Source: a virus (taxonomy: Duplodnaviria; Heunggongvirae; Uroviricota; Caudoviricetes). Taken from it: DNA of 15,548 nt. The notes under the pieces are model-generated. The model did no database searches, was not told where the DNA came from, and saw nothing but the letters and a program-made list of their open reading frames with translations. The DNA is taken from IMG/VR virus record IMGVR_UViG_2636416166_000011; one strand, written 5' to 3'. The position numbers were made by a program, and so were the translations under genes. Below, one piece after another: positions 1 to 15,548 of the stretch (the first letter of the stretch is position 1; every line of letters starts with the position of its first letter).

Positions 1-303
1 CTCCGGACGTAAATCACCATCCTTTGGTGCATTCAGAAACGCGTTCAGTGTCCCCGGTGCATCAGTCGGTGCCACATCAATATCCCCGACACGGGTTGGC
101 TGCCAGCCGTTACAGTGAAGCGCAACCTCGTAATACCCCGGCTCAGCCTCAATCACATAAGCACCGTTATTGTCCGTCACGCAAGTGGCAACAACGTGTG
201 CCACAACGGTCGGACTGGTTCTTCTGGCCCGCAGTTCAATCGCACAATTTACGACAGGTTTACCCGCCCCATCTTTCAGTACACCTGAAATCTTTACTGC
301 CAT
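1..303 (-). CDS. stf: Side tail fibre protein Stf, N-terminal 101 codons (partial; continues beyond window start)
   Basis: Minus-strand ATG at 303..301; translation MAVKISGVLKDGAGKPVVNCAIELRARR... matches my recollection of the lambda Stf N-terminus (MAVKISGVLKDG.GKPV.NC). Lies immediately downstream of lom as in lambda. Open to the window edge. Confidence 0.75.
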   Translation of the reverse strand, partial: MAVKISGVLKDGAGKPVVNCAIELRARRTSPTVVAHVVATCVTDNNGAYVIEAEPGYYEVALHCNGWQPTRVGDIDVAPTDAPGTLNAFLNAPKDGDLRPE

Positions 304-313
304 ATTCACCCCA

Positions 314-340
314 CAAAAAGCCCGCCTGAACCAGCGGGCT
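314..340 (-). terminator. Rho-independent terminator downstream of lom
   Basis: Minus strand reads AGCCCGC-TGGTTCAG-GCGGGCT followed by TTTTTGTGGGG: 7-bp GC-rich stem (plus 319..325 / 334..340) with T-run (plus A-run 314..318). Sits 27 nt after the lom stop. Confidence 0.6.
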
Positions 341-366
341 GTCATAACACTGTGTTACCTGGCTAA

Positions 367-966
367 TCAGAACTTATAACCGACACCCACGATGAAACCG
401 TCAGTGCGCCAGTCGCCACTGCCGGAACCTTCATAAGCAAGGTCAATGGCCACGGATTCGGTCGGGTTAAACTGCACGCCAGCCCCCCACGCCAGAGACG
501 TGTTGCTGTGGCGGTTGTCATCACTCCCGGTCAGCACATCGTGCGTTTTCCCCTTGTTGTCAGTTACGCGGAGATAATCCCCGGAGAAGGTCGACACACG
601 GCTGTAAGCCACGCCCGCCATCGCATACGCGCTGAACCATTCATTCACGCGCACAGACGGCCCCGCCATCACGCTGAACCAGCGGTTACGCACGGAATCC
701 TCATGCCAGCGGGTATCGCTGTAATGCGTTTTTTGCTCATCTTCAGCGTTGGCATAGCTGAATGACGTCACCAGCCCCAACGTGTCCGTAAACTCATAAC
801 GGTATTTCACGTTAATGCCCTTCAGGTCATCGCTGCCTGGCATATCAGTATGGGGCTGAAGATACCCGGCGCTCAGCGTGGACTGATGTTCAGACGCCCA
901 TGCAGGCGCACCGGATACAGCCAGACAGATGGCTGCGGACAAAATGGCTGCACAAACTTTACGCAT
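367..966 (-). CDS. lom: Lom outer-membrane protein (Ail/Lom family beta-barrel), 199 aa
   Basis: ORF 367..966, ATG start with GAGAGG Shine-Dalgarno upstream; N-terminal signal peptide (MRKVCAAILSAAICLAVSGAPAWA); C-terminal aromatic residue (…GVGYKF) typical of OMP barrels; position between J and stf as in lambda. Confidence 0.9.
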   Translation of the reverse strand: MRKVCAAILSAAICLAVSGAPAWASEHQSTLSAGYLQPHTDMPGSDDLKGINVKYRYEFTDTLGLVTSFSYANAEDEQKTHYSDTRWHEDSVRNRWFSVMAGPSVRVNEWFSAYAMAGVAYSRVSTFSGDYLRVTDNKGKTHDVLTGSDDNRHSNTSLAWGAGVQFNPTESVAIDLAYEGSGSGDWRTDGFIVGVGYKF

Positions 967-990
967 AATTACCTCTCGCTTTTCTGCAAT

Positions 991-1014
991 AAAAAAGGCA
1001 CCATTTCTGGTGCC
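991..1014 (-). terminator. Rho-independent terminator between J and lom
   Basis: Minus strand GGCACCA-GAAA-TGGTGCC followed by TTTTTTATTG (plus stem 997..1003 / 1008..1014, A-run 991..996). Starts 20 nt after the J stop. Confidence 0.6.
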
Positions 1015-1033
1015 CGTATCTGGGTTATAAAAT

Positions 1034-4000
1034 TCAGCTAATCGTGATGCCTGCAGTGGCTTTCTTCATCACAACAACCAGCAAATCGCTGATACTTGCT
1101 GTGGGATACCAGCCATTTACCAGCCATGCCGATACAGAAAACTCCAGCGTCATGTGACCGTGACCGGCAGGCATATCAATAACACCCGTATATATCAGCG
1201 TATTATCCAGGGTCGTTCGGTTATAAATTTCAGCACCGTTTTTCTTCACTATCAGGCTGCATGACGAATAAATATTGTTATTCTTCCGCTCATGTTTAGC
1301 ACCGCGAAACGCCACCGCGGGAATAACAATTTGCCGATCAAACGGCTGATCGTCATAAACCCTGACGGTAATGGTCCCTGATGGCCACCTCTCCGGTGCC
1401 CGGGAGTCCCGTGGGAAAGGTTTGCCCACTGTTTTAACGAGATCGCCTTCAATCTGGTTCGCGGACAATTTTCCCAGAACCCGACAGTTCTTATTAATCG
1501 TGACGTTGTTGAGCGTCCCGGAGTTCGCGTTCACGTTACCGCTGATATCGGCATTTTTCGCCGTCAGCCGTCCGCCAGGTGTCAGGGAAAATGCCGGAGG
1601 ATTACCGCCGCTGGTAATGGTCGGAGCCGTCAGGCGTTTCAGGAACACGTCGTTCATGAATATCTGATCGCCCTGACCAACAAACATCGGCTTTGTGTTG
1701 CCATTCGCAGGATTAATCATCGCAATCCTGTCTGCCGCCAGCAGCACCTGACTCTGCATTCCTGCTGGCGTATTCTCAATACCGGCACCGATACCCGCAA
1801 TATAAAGGCGTCCGTCCTTCATCTGTTGCAGCTTCACAGCCCACATGCTGTTCAGGTTATTATTTGTATCAACCTGAACTTTCTGTATCTGCTGGATTGC
1901 AGCACTCTGATTTTCCAGTTTTTTATTGACGGTTTGCGTGATTTCATTGCTGACATTCGTAATGGACGTCCTGATTTCAGTCAGGTCCGGCGCAAGCTGA
2001 CCGTTATCAATCTGCGTCCACAACTCCTTGCCGAGATGCGTGTTATTGATCAACCCTTTATAAAAACTCAGATAACCTTCCGCATCATCGCTCGCCCGAC
2101 CGACGGCCTCCACAAATGCCGATTTGCCAACGGTGTTCACACTGCGAACGTAAAAATAATAATCATGGCCCGGCCTGATATTGATACTGGCGGCTATCCA
2201 GTACAGCGCCGTGCCAAGATAGCGGGCGCTGGTTTCAACCTGCCTGATATCCGCAATCCGCTTTTCCGAAAACCAGAACTCAAACTGCACCGTCGGGTCG
2301 TATACAGCCAGTTTCGGGACCGCCGTTATCTGAAAATACCCCGGTATCAGTTCAATAGTGACGGCGCTGCCGGTGCGGCAATCCGGAACGATACCGACGC
2401 CGGATCGCCCTGCTGCCCCCGGGCATTTACCGCCCGGACTGTCAGACTGTAATTCCCCAGCGCCAGCTGCCTGAAGCGGTATGTGGTTTCCGTCGTCCTG
2501 GCTGTGCTGACCAGCCGCTCACTGCCGTCATCCGCTGCCACGGTCAGGCGAAGCAGGAAGCTCACACCCTTCACCACCTTCGGCGTGTCCCATCGCGCCA
2601 GCACCTGATATTCCCCGCTGTCTGCGGTGACTTCGGCGGTCAGATGCTGCACCGCTGGCGGCGTGACACCATTCACCGTGCCGCGCCGGTCACCGTCAAA
2701 GTGTGCCCCGTTATCCACGATGGCCTCTTTTTCCGGCACATGCTGCACGGCGGTGATGGCATACGTGCCGTCGTCGTTCTCACGGATACTCACGCAGCGG
2801 AACAGGCGCTGGCGCAGCGTCGGCAGCTTCAGCCCCCACACGCTGTATTCTGCAACGCCGTCAGGAACCCGGCTCACTTTCACCTTCACGCCGTCGGTGA
2901 CGGACTGAACCTCCACGCTGACCGGATTGCCATTTCCGTCAACCAGGCTTATCAGCGTGGTACAGGAGGACGGCAGCGTGATTTCACGGTCGAGCGTCAG
3001 CGTCCGGGTCTGGCTGTTCACCGCCAGTACGCGACCACCGGTGCTGATACCGGCATAATCATCATCGCAGATTTCAATGACATCACCCGGTACATGGCGA
3101 AGCCCTTCTGCGCCGACGCTGAAGTCCACGGTCTGCGTTTCCAGCAGTTCCGTTTTAATCAGCCACAGCCCGGCGCGGTGCGCCTGTCCCCGGCTGGTAC
3201 AGCCAAAGGCATCCATCTTCGTGACGTTACGACCGTAACGGAGAATGGCCTGCGCGTCCTCCACAAGCTCTGTCGCCGTCTCATGACCGTTGTCCGGATC
3301 AATCCAGTTCACCTCAACGACATTATGGCGGTCCTTCAGGGCGCTGAAGCTGTAGCGGAACGGCGCGCCATCATCCGGCATCACCACATTACTGCGGTTA
3401 TAGGTCCACACTTTATCCGACGGTCGGTCCTGCACGAACGTCAGCGTCTGCCCGTTCCATACCGGCATACAGCGCATCGCCGAGCAGAAATCACTGAGAA
3501 CATCCCACGCCTTACGCTGTGTGGTCAGGTAAGCGTTACAGGTGATGCGCGGCTCCGTGCCGCCAAATCCGTCCGGCACTGACTGGTCGCAGTACTGGCC
3601 GATGACATACAGCGCCCATTTGTCCACATCTGCCGCACCAAGACGTTTCCCCATGCCGTAGCGCGGATGAGTGAGCATGTCCCACCGACACCAGGCCATG
3701 TTGTTGCTGTATGCTGGCTTAAGCGTTCCGTCCCAGATACCGCTGTATTGCCGCGTCTGCGGGTTATAGTTCGACGGCACCTGCAGAATGCGCCCGCGAA
3801 GATGATAATTGCGACTCACCTGCTGGTTACCGAACTGCTCTGAATCCACCTGCACGCCGACCAGCGCCGTGTTCGGGTAGCACTGTTTCACATCGATGAT
3901 TTCGGTGTATGACGACCAGAGCGTTTTGTTCTGCAGCTGGTCTGTGGTGCTGTCCGGCGTCATCCTGCGCATCCGGATATTAAACGGGCGCGGCGGCAGG

Positions 4001-4512
4001 TTACCCACCACCACCGAGGCCAGATACTGCGAAGTGGTTTTGCCCTTAATGGTGATGTCTTTTTCCGTCACCCAGCCACCGTTACGCTGTATCTGAACCA
4101 GCAGGCGGACTTCCGACGGATTCCGGTCCCCCTTTGAGGTGTTTTCCACCAGTGCCTGCACACCGAAGGTCAGGCGCAGACGATCAATGTTTGCCGACGT
4201 GATGGTCCGGGTGATCGGCGTGTCGTATTTCACTTCCGTACCCAGCACAGTCTCTGAGCCGGAAGATTCAACCCCCTCCGGCGGTGTCTGCTCCTGCTCG
4301 CCGGCGCGGAACACCACCGTAACACCGGAAAAGTTTGTCTTCCCCTCGCTGTCCAGGACTGGCGTACCGTTCAGCAGCACGCTTTTTAATCCATCCACCG
4401 GACCGTCAACCGGCCCTTCGCTGATGGCATCAATCACACTCAGCAACTGCGTGGATTTCAGGTTGTCCTTCGCTTCGCGCGGGGTATGCCCCTTACTGCT
4501 GCCTTTACCCAT
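1034..4512 (-). pseudogene. J: Tail tip host-specificity protein J (central fibre), reading frame broken near 2356..2361
   Basis: Two ORFs in different frames: 2347..4512 (721 aa, MGKGSSKGHTPREAKDN... ends ...[13 protein letters not shown]) and a second frame open from upstream of 2400 to 1034 (…[33 protein letters not shown]… to …[10 protein letters not shown]). Lambda J as I recall it reads ...[19 protein letters not shown]..., so the two frames join with an apparent 1-nt deletion in minus-strand TCAC-TATTGAA. Combined length about 1159 codons versus 1132 in lambda. Confidence 0.85.
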
Positions 4513-4533
4513 TCCTCACGCTCCATAAACGAC

Positions 4534-4554
4534 AAAACCGCCCGCAGGCGGTTT
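4534..4554 (-). terminator. Candidate stem-loop (weak terminator/attenuator) in the I-J intergenic region
   Basis: Minus strand AAACCGCC-TGCG-GGCGGTTT followed by TGTCGTTT; 6-bp GC stem (plus 4537..4542 / 4547..4552). T-run is interrupted, so termination efficiency is doubtful. Confidence 0.3.
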
Positions 4555-4572
4555 CACATGAAACATTTTGCA

Positions 4573-5214
4573 TCAGCGACCAATCACCACAACCTGACCA
4601 CCATCCCCTTCGTCTGCCGTGCTGATCTCCTGAGATACCACCCGCGACCCCACGCGCATTTCACCGTACAGAACAGGCAGAACATTGCCCTGGGCAACCA
4701 TGTTATCCAGTGAGGAGAAACAGGTGTTCTGTTTGCCGTTATCCGTTGTCTGTGTACGGGGAGTTCTGGCTTTCGGTGCCAGCATCTGTGCAACACCGCC
4801 AAGCGTCATACTGGCACCGAGAGAAAACAGCAGATTACTCGCCATAATTCCTACCCCCGGCATCCATATAGCAACCGCCATAACAGCTGCCCCCAGCACC
4901 GCCTGAAACACACCGCCACTTTTAGCTCCCACCAGACGCGGTACTATGTGGATCACTGCACCATTTGCCAGCGGCTCATTAAGACGGGCAGACAATTCGG
5001 TTTCACCTGCATCACGCCCGGCAATGCGCACCTGATACCAGCCGTCACTCAGTTTCTGACGAAACGCCGGGAGCTGTGTGGCCAGTGCGCGGATGGCTTC
5101 AGCCCCCGTTTTCACACGAAGGTCGATGCGGCGGCCAAATCGTTGCAAATCCCCGTAAAGGCAGATGCGTGCCATTCCCGGTGACGCCAGAGGGAGTGTG
5201 TGCGTCGCTGCCAT
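4573..5214 (-). CDS. I: Tail tip assembly protein I, 213 aa
   Basis: Translation MAATHTLPLASPGMARICLYGDLQRFGRRIDLRVKTGAEAIRALATQLPAFRQKLSDGWYQVRIAGRD... and C-terminus ...VLYGEMRVGSRVVSQEISTADEGDGGQVVVIGR match lambda gpI as I recall it; central hydrophobic segment. Confidence 0.85.
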   Translation of the reverse strand: MAATHTLPLASPGMARICLYGDLQRFGRRIDLRVKTGAEAIRALATQLPAFRQKLSDGWYQVRIAGRDAGETELSARLNEPLANGAVIHIVPRLVGAKSGGVFQAVLGAAVMAVAIWMPGVGIMASNLLFSLGASMTLGGVAQMLAPKARTPRTQTTDNGKQNTCFSSLDNMVAQGNVLPVLYGEMRVGSRVVSQEISTADEGDGGQVVVIGR

Positions 5215-5855
5215 TTGTCGGTATACCTCTCTCGTTTACTCAGTTGTTCAGGAATATGGTGCAGCAGCTCACCGTCGCCGCAGTAAATGGCGGCATGATT
5301 CGGCACCGATGAACCAAAACAGCACAGCAGCACATCGCCCGGTTGTGCTGATGACAACGGCACCTGATACAGCCCTGTGGCCTCCAGATTATCCAGATAG
5401 AGATTCTGACCGTGACGCCACCAGTCATCCCCGCGATGAAAATCCGGCATCTCAATCCCCGCCAGATGATAAGCATCCCGGAACAGCGTGTAACAGTCCG
5501 TCACCCCGTGCTCAAAGCGCCGCCCGGTGAGATGCGGCACACAGCGGAACTTGTGAATCGCCCCCCGGCAGACCAGCCACCACGGCAAATCACTCTGCAC
5601 CTGCAGCCGCCGGTCAGCCTCACTCAGCCAGGGCAGACCACCGGGATGACTGTGGACCAGTGCCACAATCTCCCCCTGCATCTCTGCCCGCAGCCAGTCT
5701 TCCGGTGCGATACGAAAATACGCCTCCGGCTCTGCAGAAATATTCACACAAGGGATATACCGCTCCCCCTCCGGCGTTCTCACCACGAAGCCACACGACT
5801 CCGCTGGCGCACATCGCCGGGCGTGCGCCAGAATCGCTGATTCTGTCTGTGTCAT
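5112..5855 (-). CDS. K: Tail tip assembly protein K (MPN/JAMM plus NlpC/P60-like domains), 247 aa
   Basis: The six-frame ORF 5112..6119 is over-extended; the real start is the ATG at 5855 (MTQTESAILAHARRCAPAESCGFVV...), 4 nt after the L stop. Contains HSHPGG (JAMM-like) and Cys/His/His residues (VTDCY, NHAAIY, LLHH) of an NlpC/P60-type fold. Overlaps I by 103 nt. Confidence 0.8.
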   Translation of the reverse strand: MTQTESAILAHARRCAPAESCGFVVRTPEGERYIPCVNISAEPEAYFRIAPEDWLRAEMQGEIVALVHSHPGGLPWLSEADRRLQVQSDLPWWLVCRGAIHKFRCVPHLTGRRFEHGVTDCYTLFRDAYHLAGIEMPDFHRGDDWWRHGQNLYLDNLEATGLYQVPLSSAQPGDVLLCCFGSSVPNHAAIYCGDGELLHHIPEQLSKRERYTDKWQRRTHSLWRHREWHASAFTGICNDLAAASTFV

Positions 5856-5859
5856 GGAT

Positions 5860-6559
5860 TTACTGAGAAAGTTTATTGATGGAAAGGAAACCGCCGAAAT
5901 TACCGGTATTGTTGCGCAACTCACACCCGCGCATACACTTGCTGCATTTGTCCTTCCGGATATCCGTCGTTGGTTTGTCGAACTCGTCAGCCACTGCCCT
6001 GCCCGTGTAACCACACTCATCAGAACGGTAGGTCCACATACAGGTATTCGCCAGCATGATACGCCCCGGGAAAACCGCGCCATCCGTCTCCGTTGGTGTG
6101 GCCAGCACAAAAGAGGCACTGACCGCGCTCAGTTCGCTGCACTGCTCGATGCGCCAGCGGCTGATCACCTCCTGCTCCGGATCGGCGTCACTGTTTCCGT
6201 TGACGAAGTTCACCGCATCCAGAAAACGGGCGTAAACCTTACGCCGGACCACCGTTCCGCCGACCAGACTCTGCAGATCTTCCGCCATCCCGGCGACCAT
6301 ACCGTACAGGTTAGAAACCGTCAGCGTGGGGCGCGTACTGGTGCCTTTGCCATTCAGTTCAAAACCACTCCCCCTGAATGGGATACGGCTGATACTGTCG
6401 CCCCTGCCAGGTGACCGGCTCACCTTTTTCGTTCTGCTCATTACAGAAAAAATAACGTTCTCCACCGACCTCTGTCAGGTCGATTTCCCAGAGCACCACG
6501 CTGGCCGACTGCTCCGCACGGGTGCATTCATTCAGTGTTTCCTGCCGGATATCCTGCAT
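5860..6559 (-). pseudogene. L: Tail tip protein L, reading frame broken at a C5/G5 homopolymer (6370..6374)
   Basis: N-terminal ORF 6359..6559 (MQDIRQETLNECTRAEQSASVVLWEIDLTEVGGERYFFCNEQNEKGEPVTWQGRQYQPYPIQGEWF*) and second frame down to 5860 (…GSGFELNGKGTSTRPTLTVSNLYGM…FGGFLSINKLSQ*). Removing one G from minus-strand CAGGGGGAG gives ...YPIQGSGFELNGKG..., the lambda gpL sequence as I recall it. ATGA overlap with the M stop at 6559. Confidence 0.85.
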
Positions 6560-6888
6560 CAGTTCACCACCTGTTCAAAATCGGCCGTTACAGTCACCCA
6601 TAACGCCCCCACGCTTGCCGACCATTTACGACAAGCCACCCTGATCGGTTTCCAGTCATAAGGTGGCGTCCACTGAAATGCGCGGACGCCACCGTGCCGT
6701 TCCAGAAAGGCTTTTAAAGGTGGGTGTTCACCTTTACGAACACGTATCGTCACGCTGTAAGTCGACAGCAGATTATTCAGTCCCGCCGGGCGACGCTGTT
6801 CATAACCATCACCCAGCTTCACTGCCACCACTTTTGGCTCTGATACCACATTCATATCCGGGCGCACCTTCCAGCGAAACGTCTCCAT
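6559..6888 (-). CDS. M: Tail tip protein M, 109 aa
   Basis: METFRWKVRPDMNVVSEPKVVAVKLGDGYEQRRPAGLNNLLSTYSVTIRV...FEQVVN; same length as lambda gpM and collinear with it as I recall; start overlaps the H stop (TAATG). Confidence 0.85.
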   Translation of the reverse strand: METFRWKVRPDMNVVSEPKVVAVKLGDGYEQRRPAGLNNLLSTYSVTIRVRKGEHPPLKAFLERHGGVRAFQWTPPYDWKPIRVACRKWSASVGALWVTVTADFEQVVN

Positions 6889-9800
6889 TACCGGTATGCT
6901 CCACTTAACCGGCCACCATCACGGGCCTGCTGTTGCATAAAGTCCGCGGCCGCTTTTTTCCCGAGGTCATAAACCACCTTCAGTGCTGCCGGACCTATCT
7001 GCCCGTTCGTGCCGTCGTTATTGATCCCGATGTTGTACTGCGGGGCAAACATCACCATGCCTGAACCACCAGTATCCGCCACAACCCCCAGCTTACCATC
7101 AGCACCGCGACGCAGTGGCAGAATGGCTTTAGGTCCCGCTTCCCCCATCACACCCGCGCCTTTTGCAAAAGCAAAAAACGTCGGACGGTTAACCACCGTG
7201 CCACTGTAGCGACTCAAATCAGCAGACTGGTAAACACCGCCATCAGCATTAGTCGTGAAGCCGAATAAAGAGCCGACGCCCTTTACCGCCTGCATCATGG
7301 CCATCTGTGCCATAATTCTGGCCATATCTGACAACAGGGAAGAGGTGAAGGATTTAAAATTCAGCTTACCGGTGGTACAGAATGTCGCCAGTGCATTACC
7401 GGCACTGCTGAATGCCACTGTAAACATCTGTTCTGCCGTTCCCACCGCATTATCCGCATCCGCCGTAAAATTCTGAAACGCCCGCATGGCACCGTTTTTC
7501 CAGTCGCCCTGCGCCACTTCCAGTTCCTGCCAGTAGCGTTTGTTTTCATTCAGTTGTCGCTTCAGGCTCCCCTTCAGCACCTCCTCAGCCCTCCGGTAGT
7601 CCTCCGTCCCGTAAGTGCCTTTCTGGCGACTGTCATTCTCAAGCTGTTGCAACTGTTGCCGGTATTCCTGCCGGATGCGCAACTGTGCCTGGTAGCGCTG
7701 CCGCTGCTTATCCCCCATACCTGCAGTGGCAATATCCAGATTGTGCTGCTCACGCAGTGCACGTTCTTTGTCTGCCAGCTGGCTGGTCAGCTGAACCGTT
7801 TTTTTTCTCAGGTCGTTAAGCGCTGTCTGTTTCTGCAGCTCCTGCTGTTTCACATCCAGCAGCGTCAGCGCCTGAATCAGCTCATTCTTACGGGCCAGCA
7901 CACTCTTTTCATCTGCCGTCAGCTTTTTCCCGTCCAGGTCGCTGATGCGCTGCTGCAGGGCCAGAAGCTGTTTATGCGCTTCAGTCATCCTTTCAGTGGC
8001 AATGCCTGCTGACTGTCTGGCAGCAGCAATCTGCCCTTCCACCTGTGCCTGCTGCTGACTGTACTGCAGCAATAACCGGGTGGCCTCATCATTACGGGTT
8101 GCCCGTGTATTTTTCTTAATGGCTTTTTCGTAACGTTCATTTTCACGCTGTATCGCCGCATCCCTGACAGCCTGGTCGGCGTACTGCATGGCATTAATAC
8201 GCGCAATTTCCCGCTGATGTCGTGCAGCTTCCGTTTCATTCATCCGGTTCAGCGCGGCATTTTCAGCATTCCGGCGTTTCTGTTGCTCCTGGTAATTCCG
8301 TTCTGCCTGCGCTTTTGCATCCTGCAAATCCTTCCGGCGTTTTTTCTCCTGAAGATCGTTAAGACGCTGCTGATCGTACTCCACCTGTGTGGAGGCGTTT
8401 GTCCACGGATATTTTTTCGCGCGCTGAATTTTTTCCTGTAACGCATCAATCTGCGCATCCAGCGAGTCTTCACGACCAATATTCATGGCCGCATCCCAGA
8501 ACTGCTTCCACCAGTCAGACAAGGTTTGCAGCGTACTACCCAGCGCATTGAGATTATTATCAATATCAGATGTGCGTTTACCGGTTTCCTCTGCCAGCGC
8601 AGACATGGCGATCCGGGCCGCATCACTGGACCGCCCCTGCTCCCCAAGGACGCGTATCTGCTCAAGCTGAGTGGCAGTCAAAAAATGCAGCGCATTGTCC
8701 AGCGCCTTCGCGGCATTTACAGGATCATCCTTCAGCCGCTTAAACTGATTTATGGTATCGCTGACCGACTGGCCAACCGATCGCTCCATCTGTGCGGCAG
8801 CTTTCGCCACCATACCAATATCGTTTCCATGAAATGCCCCACTGCCCACCACCTGTGCCAGCGCACCGGCTGCCGCATGTTGCGTGATACCATTCCCGGA
8901 TATGGCCCGGCTGAGTTTCCACAACTGCCCGACAGTGACACCGGCATAATGTCCCGTCAGCGCCAGCTGACGGTTAAATTCCTCGCCCTCCTTCCGGCCG
9001 TCATGCCAGGCTTTACCCAGACCCAGGACCGCCGCGACAAGTCCGCCAATAACGCCGCCAGTCATCATGCCTTTCGGCGACATCAGTGCGCCTGTCCATC
9101 CGGCACGGTTAGCCAGCGTTATCCCGGATCCCCTCAGCGCACCAAAATTGCCGCGCGCCATCTGACTGATTAACACCCCCAGCTCCCGCCGGGCTGCCGC
9201 ACTTTTCAGCCCCAGCGAATGTGTGGCTTTTCCTGCCCGCTCCATTTTGCGGATATACACTTCTGCAGCACTGCTTACCCCCAGCTGAGCCGCCCTGGCG
9301 CGAAGCAACTCAGAAGACGACAGATTCTGGCGGGTTGCCTGCTCTTTAAGCTGGCGGATAAACGCCGCTTTCTGCCGGGTGGCCTGTTCCTCTGCCTGCG
9401 TCAGGGCACGGGTTTTCGCCGTGATCTCCGAAATCAGCGCCAGATAATCCTGCTGACCAACCCCGCCACTGTTTCTGGCCTGTCGGATCTGCTGCTGAAT
9501 ACGCTGTAATTCCTGAAGCCCCGCACCGGCCTGTTTCACACTGTCAATCTGGCGATAAAAGGCGGCAGCCGCTTTATCCTGCGCCTCCGCCAGTGCCCTG
9601 GCCTGCGCCTGTTCCTCGCGCATTTTCTGATTCAGGGCATCCACGCGCAGACGGGTTTGTTCCACCTCACGGGCCATGCGTTCATGAGCCCGTGCATTCT
9701 TCTCCACCGTCTGCGCATGGGCTGATGCTGCTGTTGCAGCCGAAGAAGCCGCATGCATTGTCTGCCGGGCCGCCTGAGTCTGACGCTCCATAAAACGCTG

Positions 9801-9929
9801 CATACGGGCAGAAGACCGTTCTGCATCACCGGCTGCACCATTCAGAAGGTTTTTGATACGGGGAATTTCATTTTTAAACTCTGCCGCATCAATCCCCAAA
9901 TCAATGACCAGGTTGGCTATCTGGTCCAT
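6888..9929 (-). CDS. H: Tail tape measure protein H, about 1013 aa
   Basis: Long ORF with a coiled-coil-rich, Q/R/E/A-rich central region; N-terminus MDQIANLVIDLGIDAAEF and C-terminus ...NNDGTNGQIGPAALKVVYDLGKKAAADFMQQQARDGGRLSGAYR resemble lambda gpH ends. Start chosen at ATG 9929 preceded by GGAGG (9940..9944); the ORF track begins at an upstream TTG at 9959, which is possible but less likely. Confidence 0.85.
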   Translation of the reverse strand: MDQIANLVIDLGIDAAEFKNEIPRIKNLLNGAAGDAERSSARMQRFMERQTQAARQTMHAASSAATAASAHAQTVEKNARAHERMAREVEQTRLRVDALNQKMREEQAQARALAEAQDKAAAAFYRQIDSVKQAGAGLQELQRIQQQIRQARNSGGVGQQDYLALISEITAKTRALTQAEEQATRQKAAFIRQLKEQATRQNLSSSELLRARAAQLGVSSAAEVYIRKMERAGKATHSLGLKSAAARRELGVLISQMARGNFGALRGSGITLANRAGWTGALMSPKGMMTGGVIGGLVAAVLGLGKAWHDGRKEGEEFNRQLALTGHYAGVTVGQLWKLSRAISGNGITQHAAAGALAQVVGSGAFHGNDIGMVAKAAAQMERSVGQSVSDTINQFKRLKDDPVNAAKALDNALHFLTATQLEQIRVLGEQGRSSDAARIAMSALAEETGKRTSDIDNNLNALGSTLQTLSDWWKQFWDAAMNIGREDSLDAQIDALQEKIQRAKKYPWTNASTQVEYDQQRLNDLQEKKRRKDLQDAKAQAERNYQEQQKRRNAENAALNRMNETEAARHQREIARINAMQYADQAVRDAAIQRENERYEKAIKKNTRATRNDEATRLLLQYSQQQAQVEGQIAAARQSAGIATERMTEAHKQLLALQQRISDLDGKKLTADEKSVLARKNELIQALTLLDVKQQELQKQTALNDLRKKTVQLTSQLADKERALREQHNLDIATAGMGDKQRQRYQAQLRIRQEYRQQLQQLENDSRQKGTYGTEDYRRAEEVLKGSLKRQLNENKRYWQELEVAQGDWKNGAMRAFQNFTADADNAVGTAEQMFTVAFSSAGNALATFCTTGKLNFKSFTSSLLSDMARIMAQMAMMQAVKGVGSLFGFTTNADGGVYQSADLSRYSGTVVNRPTFFAFAKGAGVMGEAGPKAILPLRRGADGKLGVVADTGGSGMVMFAPQYNIGINNDGTNGQIGPAALKVVYDLGKKAAADFMQQQARDGGRLSGAYR

Positions 9930-10250
9930 AACGCACACCTCCGGAAATACCTTCCCCAAGATGCATCAGTTCTTCGTCCGTTCGCTCCGGTATCCCGTTC
10001 TCTTCCGGTAAAAGGCTGAAATCAGCCACCGCAGCATCACTGCTGCCGGACACCATTCTCACGATCAATGCCTTCAGCGAGGCAAACTGCGCATCCATCC
10101 ACACATCACTGAAGCTCTGCATCCGGAAATAATCGCCCCCTCACCAAGCTCAGTGGCCGACATTTCCGACAGCATCCGCCGCCAGTCTGCCCGCCGGAAC
10201 TCCCGGGCAAGCCGCATGACAAACTGCATTTCCCGCGTCAGGACTTTTCC
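9901..10250 (-). pseudogene. T: Tail assembly chaperone T region (expressed as G-T fusion by -1 frameshift); the T frame itself is interrupted at a C5/G5 run (10136..10140)
   Basis: The -1 frame relative to G is open from 10262 to a stop at 10074 (…AGKVLTREMQFVMRLAREFRRADWRRMLSEMSATELGEG…). A third frame is open from 10140 to 9901 (GGDYFRMQSFSDVWMDAQFASLKALIVRM…GPDSQPGH*), ending 29 nt inside H. Adding one G to the minus-strand G5 run would fuse the two into one T-length ORF of about 120 codons. Confidence 0.6.
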
Positions 10251-10627
10251 GGCGTCAGCGCCTCATGATCATCATCCCCGGCATTCTCAATGGTCCCCAT
10301 ACCGCTCAGCGACAGAACCCTCTCCGCCCCCGCGCCCAGCGCATCATACGACCATGTTGTCATAATGGATGCGCAAAGCGTCTCAACATCCTGAGACTGC
10401 TCAGCATTCCACAGTGAGCGGGAAACCAGCCAGGCATTGATATCCATTCCCATACGCAGAAAAGCAATCTGTCGTTCAGCCTCCGGCAGTTCTCCCTCCT
10501 GTGCATCAAACTTTGCCGTTCGCTGCTGAACAAACGTCAGATATTCAATTCTCTGCAGCCCGGACAGCTCACTGAGCACCACGGACTGTTTTTCATAATT
10601 AAACGTATCCTGTTTCAGAAACATCAT
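10238..10627 (-). CDS. G: Tail assembly chaperone G, about 129 aa
   Basis: ORF 10238..10642 begins at a TTG; more likely starts are the tandem ATGs at 10627/10624 (MMFLKQDTFNYEKQSVVLSELSGLQRIEYL...) with GGAG 6 nt upstream. Acidic C-terminus (...ENAGDDDHEALTPEKS). Position between V and T/H. Confidence 0.8.
   Translation of the reverse strand: MMFLKQDTFNYEKQSVVLSELSGLQRIEYLTFVQQRTAKFDAQEGELPEAERQIAFLRMGMDINAWLVSRSLWNAEQSQDVETLCASIMTTWSYDALGAGAERVLSLSGMGTIENAGDDDHEALTPEKS
10244..10250 (-). other. Putative -1 programmed ribosomal frameshift site for G-T fusion (GGAAAAG)
   Basis: Minus-strand heptamer G-GAA-AAG in the G frame, 2 codons before the G stop. The -1 frame opens just upstream at 10262, so the shift must occur in the last 8 codons of G. 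Position matches lambda, where the slip site as I recall is G-GGA-AAG. Confidence 0.4.
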
Positions 10628-10640
10628 GTTCTCCGGATGC

Positions 10641-10663
10641 AAAAAGCCCCGGATAACCGGGGC
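10641..10663 (-). terminator. Rho-independent terminator between V and G
   Basis: Minus strand GCCCCGG-TTAT-CCGGGGC followed by TTTTTG (plus stem 10646..10652 / 10657..10663, A-run 10641..10645). Begins 20 nt after the V stop and ends just before the G Shine-Dalgarno. Confidence 0.6.
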
Positions 10664-10682
10664 AATGATGAGTATCGTCCTG

Positions 10683-11423
10683 TTATGGTGCGCTGACGGT
10701 CACCGCAGCCACTGCCACAAACTCTCCGTCAGAGGTCATGCCCACGATGCTGACACTGCCCTGCTTCACGCCTTTCACCGTGGCCACAAGCCCGCTCAGG
10801 GTCACCGAAGCAGTCTGAGGATCTGACGAATGCACACTGATCGCTTTGTCACTGGCCCCGTCAGGTTTTACTGTAAAGGTCAGTGTGGTGGTTGCTCCCG
10901 CTTTGACACTGACAGATGCCGGTGCCACCGTCAGTCCGGTAACACCCACGGTTTCAGCGCCCTCCTCTGCCAGATACGGACGCCCCACACCGCTGATTTT
11001 TACAGTACGGGTCATCACCTCTTTTGAGGTAATGGTTTTACCCAGTGAACTCAGCCAGCCACGGAAAACATCAACCGTACCGTTGGGGTATTTGATACGA
11101 AACGCGCAGACTTCACCGGAATCGAACAACTGAACCAGTTTTTTCTGCCCGCTGTCACCCGGACGCCAGGCCAGCGTCGCCAAAGTATCACCGACGGATT
11201 TCTGCCCCTGGGTTGTCGTTTTCCAGTCTGCATCTTCATCATCGAGATAAGTGTCATCTTCTGCATCAGCGGTCATTTCGCCAGGTTGCAGATCCTTCAC
11301 CATCGCAAGACGCAGCCAGTCAGTGTCCGACAAAGGGTTCGCAAACGCATCGCCCTTGCCGGTGTACATCCAGAACGTCGTTCCCGCACCTTTCGTCTTT
11401 GCCAGTGGATTTGGTGTGGTCAT
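10683..11423 (-). CDS. V: Major tail tube protein V with C-terminal Ig-like (Big_2-type) domain, 246 aa
   Basis: The ORF track starts at an upstream alternative codon; the real start is ATG 11423 (MTTPNPLAKTKGAGTTFWMYTGKGDAFANPLSDTDW...) preceded by AAGGAGG. Collinear with lambda gpV as I recall (…YLDDEDADW…FPNGTVDVFRGW…) and same length. Confidence 0.9.
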   Translation of the reverse strand: MTTPNPLAKTKGAGTTFWMYTGKGDAFANPLSDTDWLRLAMVKDLQPGEMTADAEDDTYLDDEDADWKTTTQGQKSVGDTLATLAWRPGDSGQKKLVQLFDSGEVCAFRIKYPNGTVDVFRGWLSSLGKTITSKEVMTRTVKISGVGRPYLAEEGAETVGVTGLTVAPASVSVKAGATTTLTFTVKPDGASDKAISVHSSDPQTASVTLSGLVATVKGVKQGSVSIVGMTSDGEFVAVAAVTVSAP

Positions 11424-11433
11424 TGCCACCTCC

Positions 11434-11835
11434 TTAATTCGTGTACGTGATCTGGTACGTGATTTCCGCCATCGCCCAGGTGGCCATCTCATTATCACGT
11501 TGATAGTTAAAACCGAGTGGGATCATGGTGTCGATGAGTCCGGAAAGCACCGGAATATCCTTCATGGCCGGAAATATGGTGTTCTCCATCCACGTATCCA
11601 GCTCAGAATCCGGCGCCTGTGCACGGACGAAAACGGCAATATGCAGAACAGCCTGCCAGTCGTCCTCATCCGTCATTTTTCCGGTGTACTGCGCATCACT
11701 CAGCCACACCGCCACGGCGGGCAGTTCCTGCGCATCAATAAATGCCGGAAGCCCGTCAAAAAGCACGACATTCCCCCCGCATTCGCCCTTCAGGCTTGCC
11801 AGTACTGCCTGGCGGATTTGTGTGTGCCTGTTCAT
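11434..11835 (-). CDS. U: Tail tube terminator protein U, 133 aa
   Basis: MNRHTQIRQAVLASLKGECGGNVVLFDGLPAFIDAQELPAVAVWLSDAQYTG... resembles lambda gpU (MKHTELRAAVLDAL...FFDGRPAVFDEADFPAVAVYLTGAEYTG...) as I recall; ATGA overlap with the Z stop. Confidence 0.85.
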   Translation of the reverse strand: MNRHTQIRQAVLASLKGECGGNVVLFDGLPAFIDAQELPAVAVWLSDAQYTGKMTDEDDWQAVLHIAVFVRAQAPDSELDTWMENTIFPAMKDIPVLSGLIDTMIPLGFNYQRDNEMATWAMAEITYQITYTN

Positions 11836-12419
11836 CCCAAATGTATCCTCAGTTGCTGTTTCAGGGCATACCCCAGCTGTTTCGGCATTTCCGCGGCAAT
11901 GATGCGATCGCGGGCATCCTCAAATGCCTGTGTCAGCGGTCCGGCCAGCGGAATTTTCACAACCTCCACGGGCAGACGATTTTTTCTGGGCCGCCCCTTA
12001 CTGTCCTTTCCTGTTTCAAAACACGCTTCAGGAAGACGCCTGAGAACATGCCAGCGACCGTTCGCCAGCTGCTGGATAAACGCACCACGAAAAAAGTATT
12101 TCCCCACCTTCAGTCCGTCACCGGCACGCCGGCATGTTGTGCCAAGCTTAATGGCGGGCAGATTGCCCCGGTTAACACGGATACGGGCATACATTTTTCC
12201 TGCCGGACTGGCTTTAAATACCCGGACGCGCTGACGCACCAGTTTCAGGGGGCCCCCCTTCACCTGGTTATCTCCCGCAACGGTATTCCTGGCGACCTGC
12301 CGGGTGGCAACCGAGACAACTTTTGCAGCAACCCGGTTTACTGCCCATGCGCTGGCCTGCGGCACCATACGGGTATCAAGACTGTTCAGATTGCGGATGG
12401 CATTCTCAAGCCCCCTCAT
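11832..12419 (-). CDS. Z: Tail completion protein Z, 195 aa
   Basis: MRGLENAIRNLNSLDTRMVPQASAWAVNRVAAKVVSVATRQVAR...GAFIQQLANGRWHV...VVKIPLAGPLTQAF...LGYALKQQLR resembles lambda gpZ (MKGLERAIQNLNSL...GAFIQQLKNGRWHV...) as I recall. Confidence 0.85.
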   Translation of the reverse strand: MRGLENAIRNLNSLDTRMVPQASAWAVNRVAAKVVSVATRQVARNTVAGDNQVKGGPLKLVRQRVRVFKASPAGKMYARIRVNRGNLPAIKLGTTCRRAGDGLKVGKYFFRGAFIQQLANGRWHVLRRLPEACFETGKDSKGRPRKNRLPVEVVKIPLAGPLTQAFEDARDRIIAAEMPKQLGYALKQQLRIHLG

Positions 12420-12564
12420 AATATCCCCCTGCCCTTACGTTTCCTGCTCCTTCACGCCGCAACCGGATATAACTACATCCGCCGTCATCAGGAGTAATAC
12501 GATCCACGCTGAAAGACTCCCGGCCAATCATCAGCGAATCATTGCGACACAGCTGTAAAATATC
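12406..12564 (-). pseudogene. FII: Head-tail joining protein FII, 3' fragment (last 52 codons), truncated by IS66 insertion
   Basis: Minus-strand frame entering from the IS66 boundary reads DILQLCRNDSLMIGRESFSVDRITPDDGGCSYIRLRREGAGNVRAGGYYEGA*; compare my recollection of the lambda gpFII C-terminus ...RQLRRGDTLTIGEENFWVDRVSPDDGGSCHLWL.... Stop overlaps the Z start. No start codon; the frame is cut by the IS66 left end. Confidence 0.6.
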
Positions 12565-12589
12565 GTAAGCGTAAACTGACCGCCGTATG
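12565..12589. repeat. IS66-family left terminal inverted repeat
   Basis: GTAAGCGTAAACTGACCGCCGTATG, matches the right end in inverted orientation. Confidence 0.7.
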
Positions 12590-12650
12590 TAGCCATTAAG
12601 CCTGTATTGGTAACGTAGGTGCCCACCTTTTCAACTAGTGGACACCTGTT

Positions 12651-13070
12651 ATGGAACAGAAAGCATTATCTGCAGAACCCCGCAGATCATTTTCAAATGA
12701 GTTTAAACTTCAAATGGTTAAACTGGCTTCACAACCAGGAGCCTCTGTTGCCCGTATTGCCCGGGAACACGATATCAATGATAACCTGCTGTTTAAATGG
12801 CTCAGGCTCTGGCAGAACGAAGGGCGCATATCGCGGCGTCTTCCGGTAACAACCTCTTCTGACACTGGCGTTGAATTATTACCTGTGGAGATAACGCCGG
12901 ATGAGCCGAAAGAACCTGTGGCTGGTCTTACTCCGTCTTTATCTACTCAGACTACAGTTAGTGCCAGCTCCTGCAAGGTGGAGTTCCGTCACGGTAACAT
13001 GACGCTGGAAAATCCTTCACCAGAGCTGCTCACAGTGTTGATCCGTGAACTGACCGGGAGGGGACGATGA
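12651..13070 (+). CDS. IS66-family accessory protein TnpA (orf1), 139 aa
   Basis: First ORF of the element (MEQKALSAEPRRSFSNEFKLQMVKLASQPGASVARIAREHDINDNLLFKWL..., helix-turn-helix-like N-terminus); stop overlaps the orfB start (ATGA). Confidence 0.8.
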   Translation: MEQKALSAEPRRSFSNEFKLQMVKLASQPGASVARIAREHDINDNLLFKWLRLWQNEGRISRRLPVTTSSDTGVELLPVEITPDEPKEPVAGLTPSLSTQTTVSASSCKVEFRHGNMTLENPSPELLTVLIRELTGRGR

Positions 13071-13417
13071 TCTCACTCCCGTCAGGCACCCGCATCTGGC
13101 TCGTTGCTGGGATAACCGATATGCGTAAGTCTTTCAACGGGCTGGGTGAACAGGTACAGCATGTGCTGAATGATAATCCCTTCTCCGGTCACCTGTTCAT
13201 CTTCCGTGGCCGACGGGGTGACATGATTAAAATCCTGTGGGCTGATGCTGATGGTCTGTGCCTGTTCACCAGACGCCTGGAGGAAGGCCAGTTTATCTGG
13301 CCTGCTGTGCGTGACGGCAAGGTATCCATTACCCGCTCGCAACTGGCAATGCTCCTCGATAAGCTGGACTGGCGTCAGCCAAAAACATCCCGCCTTAATG
13401 CACTGACAATGTTGTAA
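13067..13417 (+). CDS. IS66-family TnpB (orf2), 116 aa
   Basis: MISLPSGTRIWLVAGITDMRKSFNGLGEQVQHVLNDNPFSGHLFIFRGRRGDMIKILWADADGLCLF... is the characteristic IS66 Orf2 sequence; translationally coupled to orfA. Confidence 0.85.
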   Translation: MISLPSGTRIWLVAGITDMRKSFNGLGEQVQHVLNDNPFSGHLFIFRGRRGDMIKILWADADGLCLFTRRLEEGQFIWPAVRDGKVSITRSQLAMLLDKLDWRQPKTSRLNALTML

Positions 13418-13447
13418 AAATGTCATGGCCGGATTATAAAAACGGCC

Positions 13448-15040
13448 ATGAATCAAAAATACCTCATTCGCATTGCAGAACTGGAATGCCAGCTCCGTCA
13501 GAAAGACCAGCAACTGAGTCTGGTTGAAGAGACGGAGGCCTTCCTGCGCTCTGCACTGGCCCGCGCCGAAGAAAAGATCGAAGAAGATGAACGGGAAATA
13601 GAACATCTGCGGGCTCAGATAGAAAAACTGCGCCGGATGCTGTTCGGTACCCGTTCTGAAAAACTGCGTCGTGAAGTTGAACAGGCTGAGGCCCTGCTGA
13701 AACAACGCGAACAGGACAGTGATCGTTACAGTGGGCGGGAAGACGATCCGCAGGTTCCCCGCCAGTTGCGACAGTCTCGTCATCGTCGCCCGTTACCGGA
13801 GCATCTGCCCCGCGAAATAAATCGCCTGGAGCCAGAAGAAAGCTGTTGCCCGGAGTGTGGCGGTGAGCTGGATTATCTGGGGGAAGTCAGCGCAGAACAA
13901 CTGGAACTGGTGAGCAGCGCTCTGAAAGTGATCCGCACAGAACGGGTAAAAAAAGCCTGTACAAAATGTGACTGCATCGTTGAAGCACCGGCACCATCCC
14001 GTCCGATAGAGCGTGGTATCGCGGGCCCGGGGTTACTTGCCCGCGTGTTAACGGGAAAATACTGCGAACACCTGCCACTGTATCGTCAGAGTGAAATTTT
14101 TGCCCGTCAGGGTGTCGAACTGAGCCGTGCATTACTCTCCAACTTGGTTGACGCGTGCTGCCAGTTAATGACGCCGCTGAATGATGCTCTGTACCGTTAT
14201 GTAATGAACAGCCGCAAAGTTCACACTGATGACACACCAGTAAAAGTGCTGGCACCGGGCAGGAAGAAGGCGAAAACAGGATATATCTGGACGTATGTCC
14301 GGGATGACAGGAATGCCGGTTCGCCAGAGCCTCCGGCGGTCTGGTTCGCCTACTCACCGGACCATCAGGGTAAACATCCGGAGCAGCACCTTAGTCCCTT
14401 CCGGGGTATCCTGCAGGCAGATGCGTTTAATGGTTACGATCGGCTGTTCAGTGCCGAACGAGAAGGCGGCGCGTTGACGGAAGCAGGATGCTGGGCTCAT
14501 GCGCGGCGCAAAGTCCACGATGTATATATCAGTACCAAAAGCGCGACAGCGGAAGAAGCCCTGAAACTAATCGGTGAGCTGTACGCCATCGAGCACGAAA
14601 TACGCGGGTTGCCGGTGTCTGAACGCCTGGCGGTCAGGCAAATGCAGAGTAAACCGCTACTGACTTCCCTGTATAAGCTGATGCAGGAGAAAGAACACAC
14701 GTTATCGAAAAAATGCCGTCTGAGAGATGCGTTCCGGTATATCAGGAAGCACTGGGTTGCGTTGTGCAACTTCAGTGATGATGGTCTGGCTGAGGCGGAT
14801 AATAATGCCGCGGAAAGAGCGCTTCGTGCAGTCTGTCTCGGAAAGAAAAACTTTATGTTCTTCGGCAGCGATCACGGTGGAGAGCGTGGTGCGCTACTGT
14901 ACGGGCTGATCGGCACCTGCCGACTGAACGGTATCGATCCGGAAGCGTATCTGCGCTATATCCTGAGCGTACTGCCGGAATGGCCTTCCAACCGTGTTGA
15001 CGAACTCCTGCCATGGAACGTAGCACTCACCAATAAATAA
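13448..15040 (+). CDS. IS66-family transposase TnpC (orf3), 530 aa
   Basis: N-terminal coiled-coil/leucine-zipper region, zinc-ribbon CPECGGEL...CTKCDC, then DDE-type catalytic core (…HTDDTPVKVL…YIWTYV…, …DAFNGYD…, …CWAHARRKV…); ends just before the right inverted repeat. Confidence 0.85.
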   Translation: MNQKYLIRIAELECQLRQKDQQLSLVEETEAFLRSALARAEEKIEEDEREIEHLRAQIEKLRRMLFGTRSEKLRREVEQAEALLKQREQDSDRYSGREDDPQVPRQLRQSRHRRPLPEHLPREINRLEPEESCCPECGGELDYLGEVSAEQLELVSSALKVIRTERVKKACTKCDCIVEAPAPSRPIERGIAGPGLLARVLTGKYCEHLPLYRQSEIFARQGVELSRALLSNLVDACCQLMTPLNDALYRYVMNSRKVHTDDTPVKVLAPGRKKAKTGYIWTYVRDDRNAGSPEPPAVWFAYSPDHQGKHPEQHLSPFRGILQADAFNGYDRLFSAEREGGALTEAGCWAHARRKVHDVYISTKSATAEEALKLIGELYAIEHEIRGLPVSERLAVRQMQSKPLLTSLYKLMQEKEHTLSKKCRLRDAFRYIRKHWVALCNFSDDGLAEADNNAAERALRAVCLGKKNFMFFGSDHGGERGALLYGLIGTCRLNGIDPEAYLRYILSVLPEWPSNRVDELLPWNVALTNK

Positions 15041-15045
15041 GCGTC

Positions 15046-15308
<263 letters not shown>

Positions 15309-15548
15309 CCCCTTCTCATTCAGGCCACGGATAATGGTGGTGTACAGACCATCCTGCGTGCTCAGTGACGGCGGGAATGAAGTTTCAATCGGACGAACAA
15401 CGACCACGCCAGAATTCAGATCGGTGTGCTCATTCAGGAGATCGATTTGCCAGTCAACAAAGGCGCGCAGGAAGTTACCTTCACCAAACTGAATGATACG
15501 TTCTGGATACTGTGCACCGGGAATATCGCGACGATTTAGTGTTTTCAC
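15309..15548 (-). pseudogene. uxaB: Altronate oxidoreductase (tagaturonate reductase) UxaB, N-terminal 80 codons only; 3' part removed at the IS3-family element end
   Basis: Minus-strand translation from the window edge (GTG at 15548..15546) [80 protein letters not shown] matches my recollection of the E. coli UxaB N-terminus (mannitol-dehydrogenase family Rossmann fold). The stop codon ending the ORF at 15306..15308 is the terminal TGA of the IS element, not a native stop; the full protein is about 480 aa. Confidence 0.7.

Follow-up and report, generated by a model that had tools for sequence, protein, structure and literature searches.

A tail-only lambdoid prophage remnant at the edge of an IS66-family element in Shigella

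The 15,548-nucleotide sequence held as virus record IMGVR_UViG_2636416166_000011 (here called the window, meaning the whole stretch of DNA that was analysed) is very probably a dead fragment of a lambdoid prophage in a Shigella chromosome, one that retains tail genes only and that results from an old deletion associated with an IS66-family insertion sequence (IS). The window corresponds to positions 1-15548 of the NCBI contig AMJU01000140.1 (GCA_000815585.1; 21,227 bp), which starts at window position 1. To judge from its sequence, the remnant would make neither tails nor particles. A tail-only remnant had been proposed in an original prediction made from the letters of the DNA; that reading is extended here by pseudogenes within the tail block, by a truncated uxaB gene and by evidence for an old deletion.

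The tail gene block and its IS66 boundary

Genes were identified from a six-frame listing of open reading frames (ORFs) and by tblastn of all lambda late proteins (lambda NC_001416) against the window. Between positions 1 and 12564 the minus strand carries stf'-lom-J-I-K-L-M-H-T-G-V-U-Z-FII', in strict lambda order, with homologues of the lambda proteins colinear from Z through U, V, G, T, H, M, L, K and I to J, as expected of a lambda-type tail module. The Pfam domains available for this contig from an earlier computation (Minor_tail_Z, Phage_tail_U, Phage_TTP_12, Phage_TAC_2, Phage_tail_T, TMP_2/Tape_meas_lam_C, Phage_min_tail, Phage_tail_L, NLPC_P60, Lambda_tail_I, the GpJ domains and Ail_Lom) agree with the tblastn assignments gene by gene, and the contiguous lambda-order tail module that had been predicted is confirmed to the base. 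GC skew is negative throughout to ~12.5 kb and changes sign inside the IS, consistent with a single minus-strand operon ending there. Relatives of the locus are referred to below by labels, for example L001 for the prophage of enteroinvasive Escherichia coli (EIEC) strain VL46, L016 and L030 for Sb227 and L034 for K-12. The features of the window are listed here, with protein lengths in amino acids (aa).

1-303, minus strand: stf' (side tail fibre), first 101 codons, cut by the start of the source contig; 100% identical to EIEC stf residues 1-101 and 52% to lambda orf-401 residues 1-101
367-966, minus strand: lom (Ail/Lom outer-membrane protein), intact, 199 aa; from tblastn, EIEC homology and Pfam
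1034-4512, minus strand: J (tail tip / host specificity), pseudogene, in ORFs of 721 aa and 418 aa
4573-5214, minus strand: I (tail assembly), intact; lambda and EIEC homology
5112-5855, minus strand: K (JAB/NlpC-P60 tail tip protein), intact, 247 aa; lambda and EIEC homology, Pfam
5860-6559, minus strand: L (minor tail protein), pseudogene; lambda and EIEC homology
6559-6888, minus strand: M (minor tail protein), intact; lambda and EIEC homology
6888-9929, minus strand: H (tape measure), intact, 1013 aa; lambda and EIEC homology, Pfam
9901-10229, minus strand: T (frame -1 to G, the G-T chaperone extension), frameshifted; EIEC homology
10238-10624, minus strand: G (tail assembly chaperone), intact, 128 aa; lambda and EIEC homology, Pfam
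10683-11423, minus strand: V (major tail tube protein), intact, 246 aa; lambda and EIEC homology, Pfam
11434-11835, minus strand: U (tail terminator), intact; lambda and EIEC homology, Pfam
11832-12419, minus strand: Z (tail completion), intact, 195 aa; a mosaic allele, 73% identical to that of the EIEC relative
12406-12564, minus strand: FII' (head-tail joining), last 52 codons and stop; codons 1-70 missing
12565-15070, plus strand: complete IS66-family element, 2506 bp, with tnpA (12651-13070), tnpB (13067-13417) and tnpC (13448-15040) all intact
15071-15308, plus strand: 3' terminal 238 bp of an IS911-like (IS3-family) element
15309-15548, minus strand: uxaB' (tagaturonate reductase), first 80 codons only; its stop is the terminal TGA of the IS911 end

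The right-hand edge of the block is sharp. In megablast comparisons with complete E. coli genomes, homology to prophages that are 98% identical over positions 1-12564, the intact L001 among them, ends exactly at 12564, and tblastn with lambda FII matches residues 71-107 to window positions 12454-12564. FII is therefore cut between codons 70 and 71, at a breakpoint that coincides with the start of IS66 at 12565, just as predicted, and alignment with lambda and related prophages places the endpoint of the probable deletion at this base.

The element that begins there is a complete member of its family: its tnpA-tnpB-tnpC operon encodes proteins of 139, 116 and 530 aa with the TnpB_IS66, LZ_Tnp_IS66, zf-IS66 and DDE_Tnp_IS66 domains, and its termini form the inverted repeat GTAAGCG...CGCTTAC (ends GTAAGCGTAAAC... 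and ...GTTGACGCTTAC). Its two flanks, AAAATATC and GAAACTGC, show no sign of the 8-bp target-site duplication that accompanies simple insertion. Of nine other full-length copies of this IS in related genomes, six are surrounded by perfect 8-bp duplications, which argues that the copy in the window is the product of a rearrangement rather than of a simple insertion.

What should lie upstream of FII is missing. No match to the lambda head, packaging or FI proteins was found in the window by tblastn, and no head, packaging, lysis, regulatory or integrase genes are present either in the window or within 10 kb on either side in related complete genomes, in line with the predicted absence of the upstream modules from this locus. 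A functional lambdoid prophage would carry head, packaging, lysis, Q/immunity and integrase genes contiguous with its tail genes; all are present in the intact relative and none here. Rfam and tRNA scans of the window likewise returned nothing.

Three further observations concern the edges of such remnants. In an unrelated E. coli contig (L035, 7294-7561), in which the head gene region is scrambled and partly duplicated, an IS1 element interrupts FII within 1 nt of the position of IS66 in the window; FII codons 70-73 are AT-rich and may genuinely attract insertions, or the two events may be a coincidence. At ~9,000-15,000 of L004 (AMKB01000074), a related assembly, there is an IS66-bounded lambdoid remnant that has kept a holin-lysozyme-Rz group and a tail-fibre-assembly stub and lost all of its structural genes, a pattern complementary to that of the window. 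Finally, at the opposite edge, the source contig begins at stf codon 101, which is where the stf frame of Sb227 is broken (L030, 10664-10992), suggesting that a repeat or lesion lies there.

Chromosomal context and the origin of the junction

The same locus was retrieved from many Shigella genomes by look-ups with the Z protein, the lom protein and the 80-aa product of uxaB'. The database names attached to exact matches are Shigella boydii CDC 3083-94, S. flexneri CDC 796-83 and 'MULTISPECIES [Shigella]', the last being the name given to the Z protein; the exact lom protein is present in more than 2000 index blocks. A 40-mer spanning the FII'/IS66 junction recurs unchanged in 12 other assemblies, among them the complete genomes CP000036 (S. 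boydii Sb227), CP055124, CP160647 and CP026811, and the corresponding IS66/IS911' 40-mer is identical in 11 of these 12, with a single base change in the twelfth, CP026766. Over 13.7 kb, five junction-bearing assemblies match the window at 99.86-99.94% identity, a deletion in J (see below) being the sole indel. A mis-join through a repeated element might be suspected in a draft assembly such as the source, IS66 being multi-copy in Shigella. That the junction is such an artefact is scarcely credible and is refuted by these independent assemblies, which include several with contigs of 4.2-4.7 Mb. The arrangement is old and common to many Shigella genomes, not a strain-specific accident.

Beyond the tail block the original prediction had placed only IS sequences and the chromosomal gene uxaB. 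The IS elements are there, as one complete IS66 and the 238-bp IS911 fragment, but only the first 80 codons of uxaB remain: it is a truncated pseudogene, a stump rather than a gene, although many Shigella records (576 contigs) list its product as 'altronate oxidoreductase'. Past this stump, all related genomes continue with dgcF-yneG-glsB-sad-yneJ-yneK-ydeA-mar, and neither head genes just beyond uxaB nor an inversion, the arrangements put forward as contrary to a deletion, were seen. Shigella differs from K-12 here in a ~500-bp insertion between dgcF and yneG (L016, reverse complement 14927-15426, outside the window).

Mapping of Sb227 on K-12, in the orientation of the window, shows how the flanks relate to each other. 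K-12 positions 1,625,979-1,631,157 come first (from dcp to ydfI and on to the 3' end of ydfJ, the Qin site), followed by IS1, ipaH, stf...FII', IS66 and IS911', and then by K-12 positions 1,610,431-1,617,057 (uxaB', dgcF...ydeA). All segments have the same orientation in the two genomes and the junction amounts to a backward jump of ~21 kb. Compared with K-12 (L034), Sb227 (L016 and L030) has the tam-yneE-uxaB...mar block on the far side of the Qin-site prophage in K-12 orientation, that is, a block interchange.

A second genome type helps to explain this junction. Four Shigella genomes (L037-L039 and L041) share the identical IS911/uxaB' junction and, at 99.7%, the flank made up of the stf C-terminus, ipaH, IS1 and ydfI. 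Between these flanks (~10,000-20,000) they carry a complete IS911, uxaB-3', yneE and tam, along with an IS4-family element joined to the C-terminal end of stf, but no tail genes, and the IS66 target sequence GAAACTGC is contiguous within their IS911. Chromosomes of the L037 type are CP026866, CP026762, CP026814 and CP026797. (A search with the C-terminal part of UxaB gave full-length orthologues from other genera; uxaB-3' was placed through the look-up with the 80-aa uxaB' product.) Since uxaB-3', yneE and tam lie between IS911 and the remnant in this sister type, a single deletion suffices within the clade. The simplest common ancestor of the two types would have had the order uxaB5'-IS911-uxaB3'-yneE-tam-[rest of prophage]-FII-Z...J-lom-stf-ipaH-IS1-ydfI. 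The window type would then be most simply derived from it by one IS66-associated deletion running from inside IS911 to FII codon 70, and the sister type by one IS4-associated deletion. Tandem duplication, or excision of a circle followed by re-integration, was also considered for the 'permuted' junction relative to K-12 and set aside, a single deletion being simpler in the light of the sister type.

We therefore picture the window as what would be the surviving late-right arm of a lambdoid prophage that adjoined ydfI/ydfJ (the Qin site in K-12), with its tail fibre/ipaH end toward ydfI and, in this clade, the tam-yneE-uxaB-dgcF...mar block on its other side, uxaB having already been interrupted by IS911. 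An IS66-family element would then have made the deletion, either through recombination between two directly oriented IS66 copies or by IS-mediated adjacent deletion. Lost with it would have been the 5' part of IS911, uxaB-3', yneE and tam, together with whatever prophage DNA remained upstream of FII (head, packaging, lysis, Q, immunity and integrase genes). The cost would be at least ~3.8 kb of chromosome plus the prophage DNA, which upstream of FII amounts to at least 15 kb in the intact relative.

An alternative is that nothing was deleted and that the prophage was split, with inversion or translocation between IS66 copies moving the head, packaging and early half elsewhere. An IS66 copy that lacks a target duplication is indeed a recombinant or rearranged one, Shigella genomes contain many IS66 copies, several of them likewise without duplications, and a single deletion cannot yield the junction from the K-12 order. 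The last point is answered by the sister type, from whose organisation one deletion is enough. Moreover, no reciprocal flanks were found among the sampled IS66 copies of junction-bearing genomes (L005, L011-L013), and a search with FII residues 1-70 found no fragment reading into IS66 among cluster representatives, where short fragments may hide inside full-length clusters. Even if head genes exist elsewhere, the frameshifts in T and L are fixed. Taken together, these results make a split prophage unlikely.

Three candidates for the reciprocal product were examined and rejected. P0125, an exact 73-aa entry ending in KTADIL, is the lone exact match to the predicted reciprocal peptide; its source is a 666-bp S. 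flexneri contig. The terminal letters of that contig, GATATTTTAC, belong to uninterrupted FII and not to an IS66 end with its GT, so the match is a contig-break coincidence. P0001 consists of FII(1-70) running into an IS1 end and comes from a different contig, of E. coli, on which head genes are present as well, and P0044 (S. dysenteriae, 39 aa, from a 551-bp contig) has a different breakpoint.

Decay of the tail genes and the fate of the locus

Lesions in the tail genes were called by base-by-base alignment with the intact EIEC prophage, the sequence being otherwise 98-99% identical, and were confirmed at the protein level. T has a 1-nt deletion at ~10139. It starts with an ATG at 10229, in frame -1 with respect to the stop codon of G (10240-10238), in the overlapping arrangement typical of a G/G-T chaperone pair, so that the lesion truncates the G-T fusion. 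L has a 1-nt insertion at 6370 that converts a C4 run to C5, and J has a 1-nt deletion at ~2362 in a GAC-GGC context that is not a homopolymer. Tail assembly in lambda requires G-T, L and J, and with these three genes frameshifted the tail module cannot function as a unit. This, with the absence of the upstream modules, bears out the earlier view that the remnant cannot form particles alone.

The lesions are not equally distributed. The T frameshift is found in every junction-bearing genome and that in L in most but not all, whereas the J frameshift is confined to the source strain, its 721-aa product occurring in one assembly only (GCA_000815585.1). Other genomes have lesions of their own: in L042 and L044, Z is in two pieces separated by an extra, uncharacterised ORF of 169 aa, and H is frameshifted in the same two; IS elements lie within V and H in L023/L046; G is split in L021 and L022; J is interrupted by an IS in L028 and L033; and stf is disrupted in Sb227. 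Scattered, independent lesions superimposed on a common old junction are the signature of neutral decay, which probably affected T first, L next and then J in the source strain, with different IS insertions in other strains. The tail genes would have been left without the late promoter region that is upstream of them in intact relatives, and a promoter scan, a weak test, found no sigma-70-like site at the IS66/FII' boundary. With both of these missing, the tail genes are most likely silent and drifting. Identity to the EIEC prophage falls from ~98.5% (1-11984) to ~86% across Z and FII' (11984-12564), a stretch with indels of 5, 37, 18, 18 and 3 bp, and this is a normal mosaic boundary.

Could the block have been kept because it is useful? 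F-type pyocin loci are head-less lambda-like tail clusters, which the window superficially resembles, and the Z, U, V, G, H, M, K and I ORFs remain intact, as they might in a domesticated, tail-only bacteriocin of the F-type tailocin kind. Such a machine would, however, need its G-T chaperone extension, L and J, all three of which are frameshifted, and further disruptions differ from strain to strain. There is no lysis cassette or regulator within 10 kb, the upstream edge falls at an IS inside a head-joining gene, and the whole block has been lost in the sister lineage. We regard the tailocin reading as extremely improbable and effectively refuted.

It also seems improbable, if rather less so, that the intact tail ORFs have been retained as a reservoir from which incoming lambdoid phages are rescued or re-assorted by recombination, or that the lom/ipaH-proximal part has been co-opted for virulence gene expression. 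The original prediction had suggested that the tail genes might be recombined into incoming lambdoid phages or be complemented. Complementation is too generous, with T, L and J frameshifted; what is conceivable is that single ORFs still intact (Z, U, V, G, H, M, K and I) might serve as donors in recombination with temperate phages such as PhiR55_1, cdtI and mEp460, with which they share ~90% nucleotide identity. The locus has more probably been maintained by neutral persistence together with the cargo at its end, namely lom and, just outside the window in relatives, the gene for the type III effector ipaH, an LRR + NEL E3 ligase. This gene comes after stf in L028, L030 and L033, which are sister genomes, as well as in the EIEC relative. 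If the locus retains a function, lom and the neighbouring ipaH would be the plausible source of it. The location of effector genes after tail fibre genes is the usual lambdoid arrangement (PMC3530523).

Several points weigh against the account given here of a single IS66-associated deletion followed by neutral decay. The ~21 kb backward jump relative to K-12 is not made by any single deletion or single inversion, and at least one earlier rearrangement is required. The ancestral arrangement was pieced together from two derived genome types rather than directly observed. A displaced head module could lie elsewhere in the genome, the search for FI, E, portal and terminase genes having covered the locus and its 10-kb flanks. 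The silence of the tail genes, though most likely, is deduced from sequence features. The J frameshift, known from one draft assembly only, could be an assembly error (though it does not lie in a homopolymer), and ipaH is observed as a neighbour in relatives, not in the source contig, which ends inside stf.

For annotators and prophage predictors, the practical consequence is that T, L, J, FII and uxaB at this locus should be marked as pseudogenes and that database entries for an 80-aa 'altronate oxidoreductase' are products of truncation. The junction that these genomes share can be used as a phylogenetic marker for this Shigella clade.

Comparison with known prophages and tail clusters

The remnant is nothing new in kind. 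It very probably belongs to a known class of object, the IS-eroded cryptic prophages or 'ipaH islands' that have previously been characterised as features of Shigella genomes (PMC4226921), in which an IS-bounded phage remnant ends in ipaH, and it would differ from these in nothing essential. The same locus is found in S. boydii-type genomes, the window stopping before ipaH as the contig ends. The remnant offers a clean and well-dated example of how IS elements erode Shigella prophages, with lineage-specific frameshifts and IS insertions following and the effector-bearing end persisting.

Compared with the tail cluster of lambda itself (NC_001416, Z to J, lom and stf), the window has the same gene order and orientation and the same -1 frame of T relative to G. 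Protein identities range from 26% (H, which is 1013 aa long in the window and 853 aa in lambda) to 95% (K and the N-terminal part of J), and the C-terminal, receptor-binding part of J is only 58% identical. The window differs from lambda in having FII cut at codon 70 and T, L and J frameshifted.

The EIEC VL46 prophage (NZ_CM177010, L001), which carries ipaH, is 98.5% identical over window positions 1-11984 and has the same lom and the same stf N-terminus, with ipaHd just after the tail fibre genes. Unlike the window it is complete, with the rest of FII, FI, the major capsid (E), decoration (D), protease (C), portal (B) and W genes and both the large (A) and small (Nu1) terminase subunits, as well as lysis genes, four tRNAs, Q and replication genes. 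It occupies another chromosomal site, next to yecD, and its Z and FII alleles differ from those of the window, with 73-86% identity.

The Qin prophage of K-12 lies in the same neighbourhood (the ydfI/ydfJ side) and in the same orientation as the Shigella remnant, with its tail fibre end toward ydfJ, and is also defective. Qin has kept lysis, Q, immunity and int remnants and has lost its head and tail genes, so that nohA adjoins stfQ; the Shigella remnant has kept the opposite part. The F-type tailocins, finally, share with the window a head-less lambda-like tail cluster. They combine intact tail genes with a linked lysis/regulatory module, whereas the window has frameshifted essential genes, no such module and an IS edge inside FII, and is not a member of that group.

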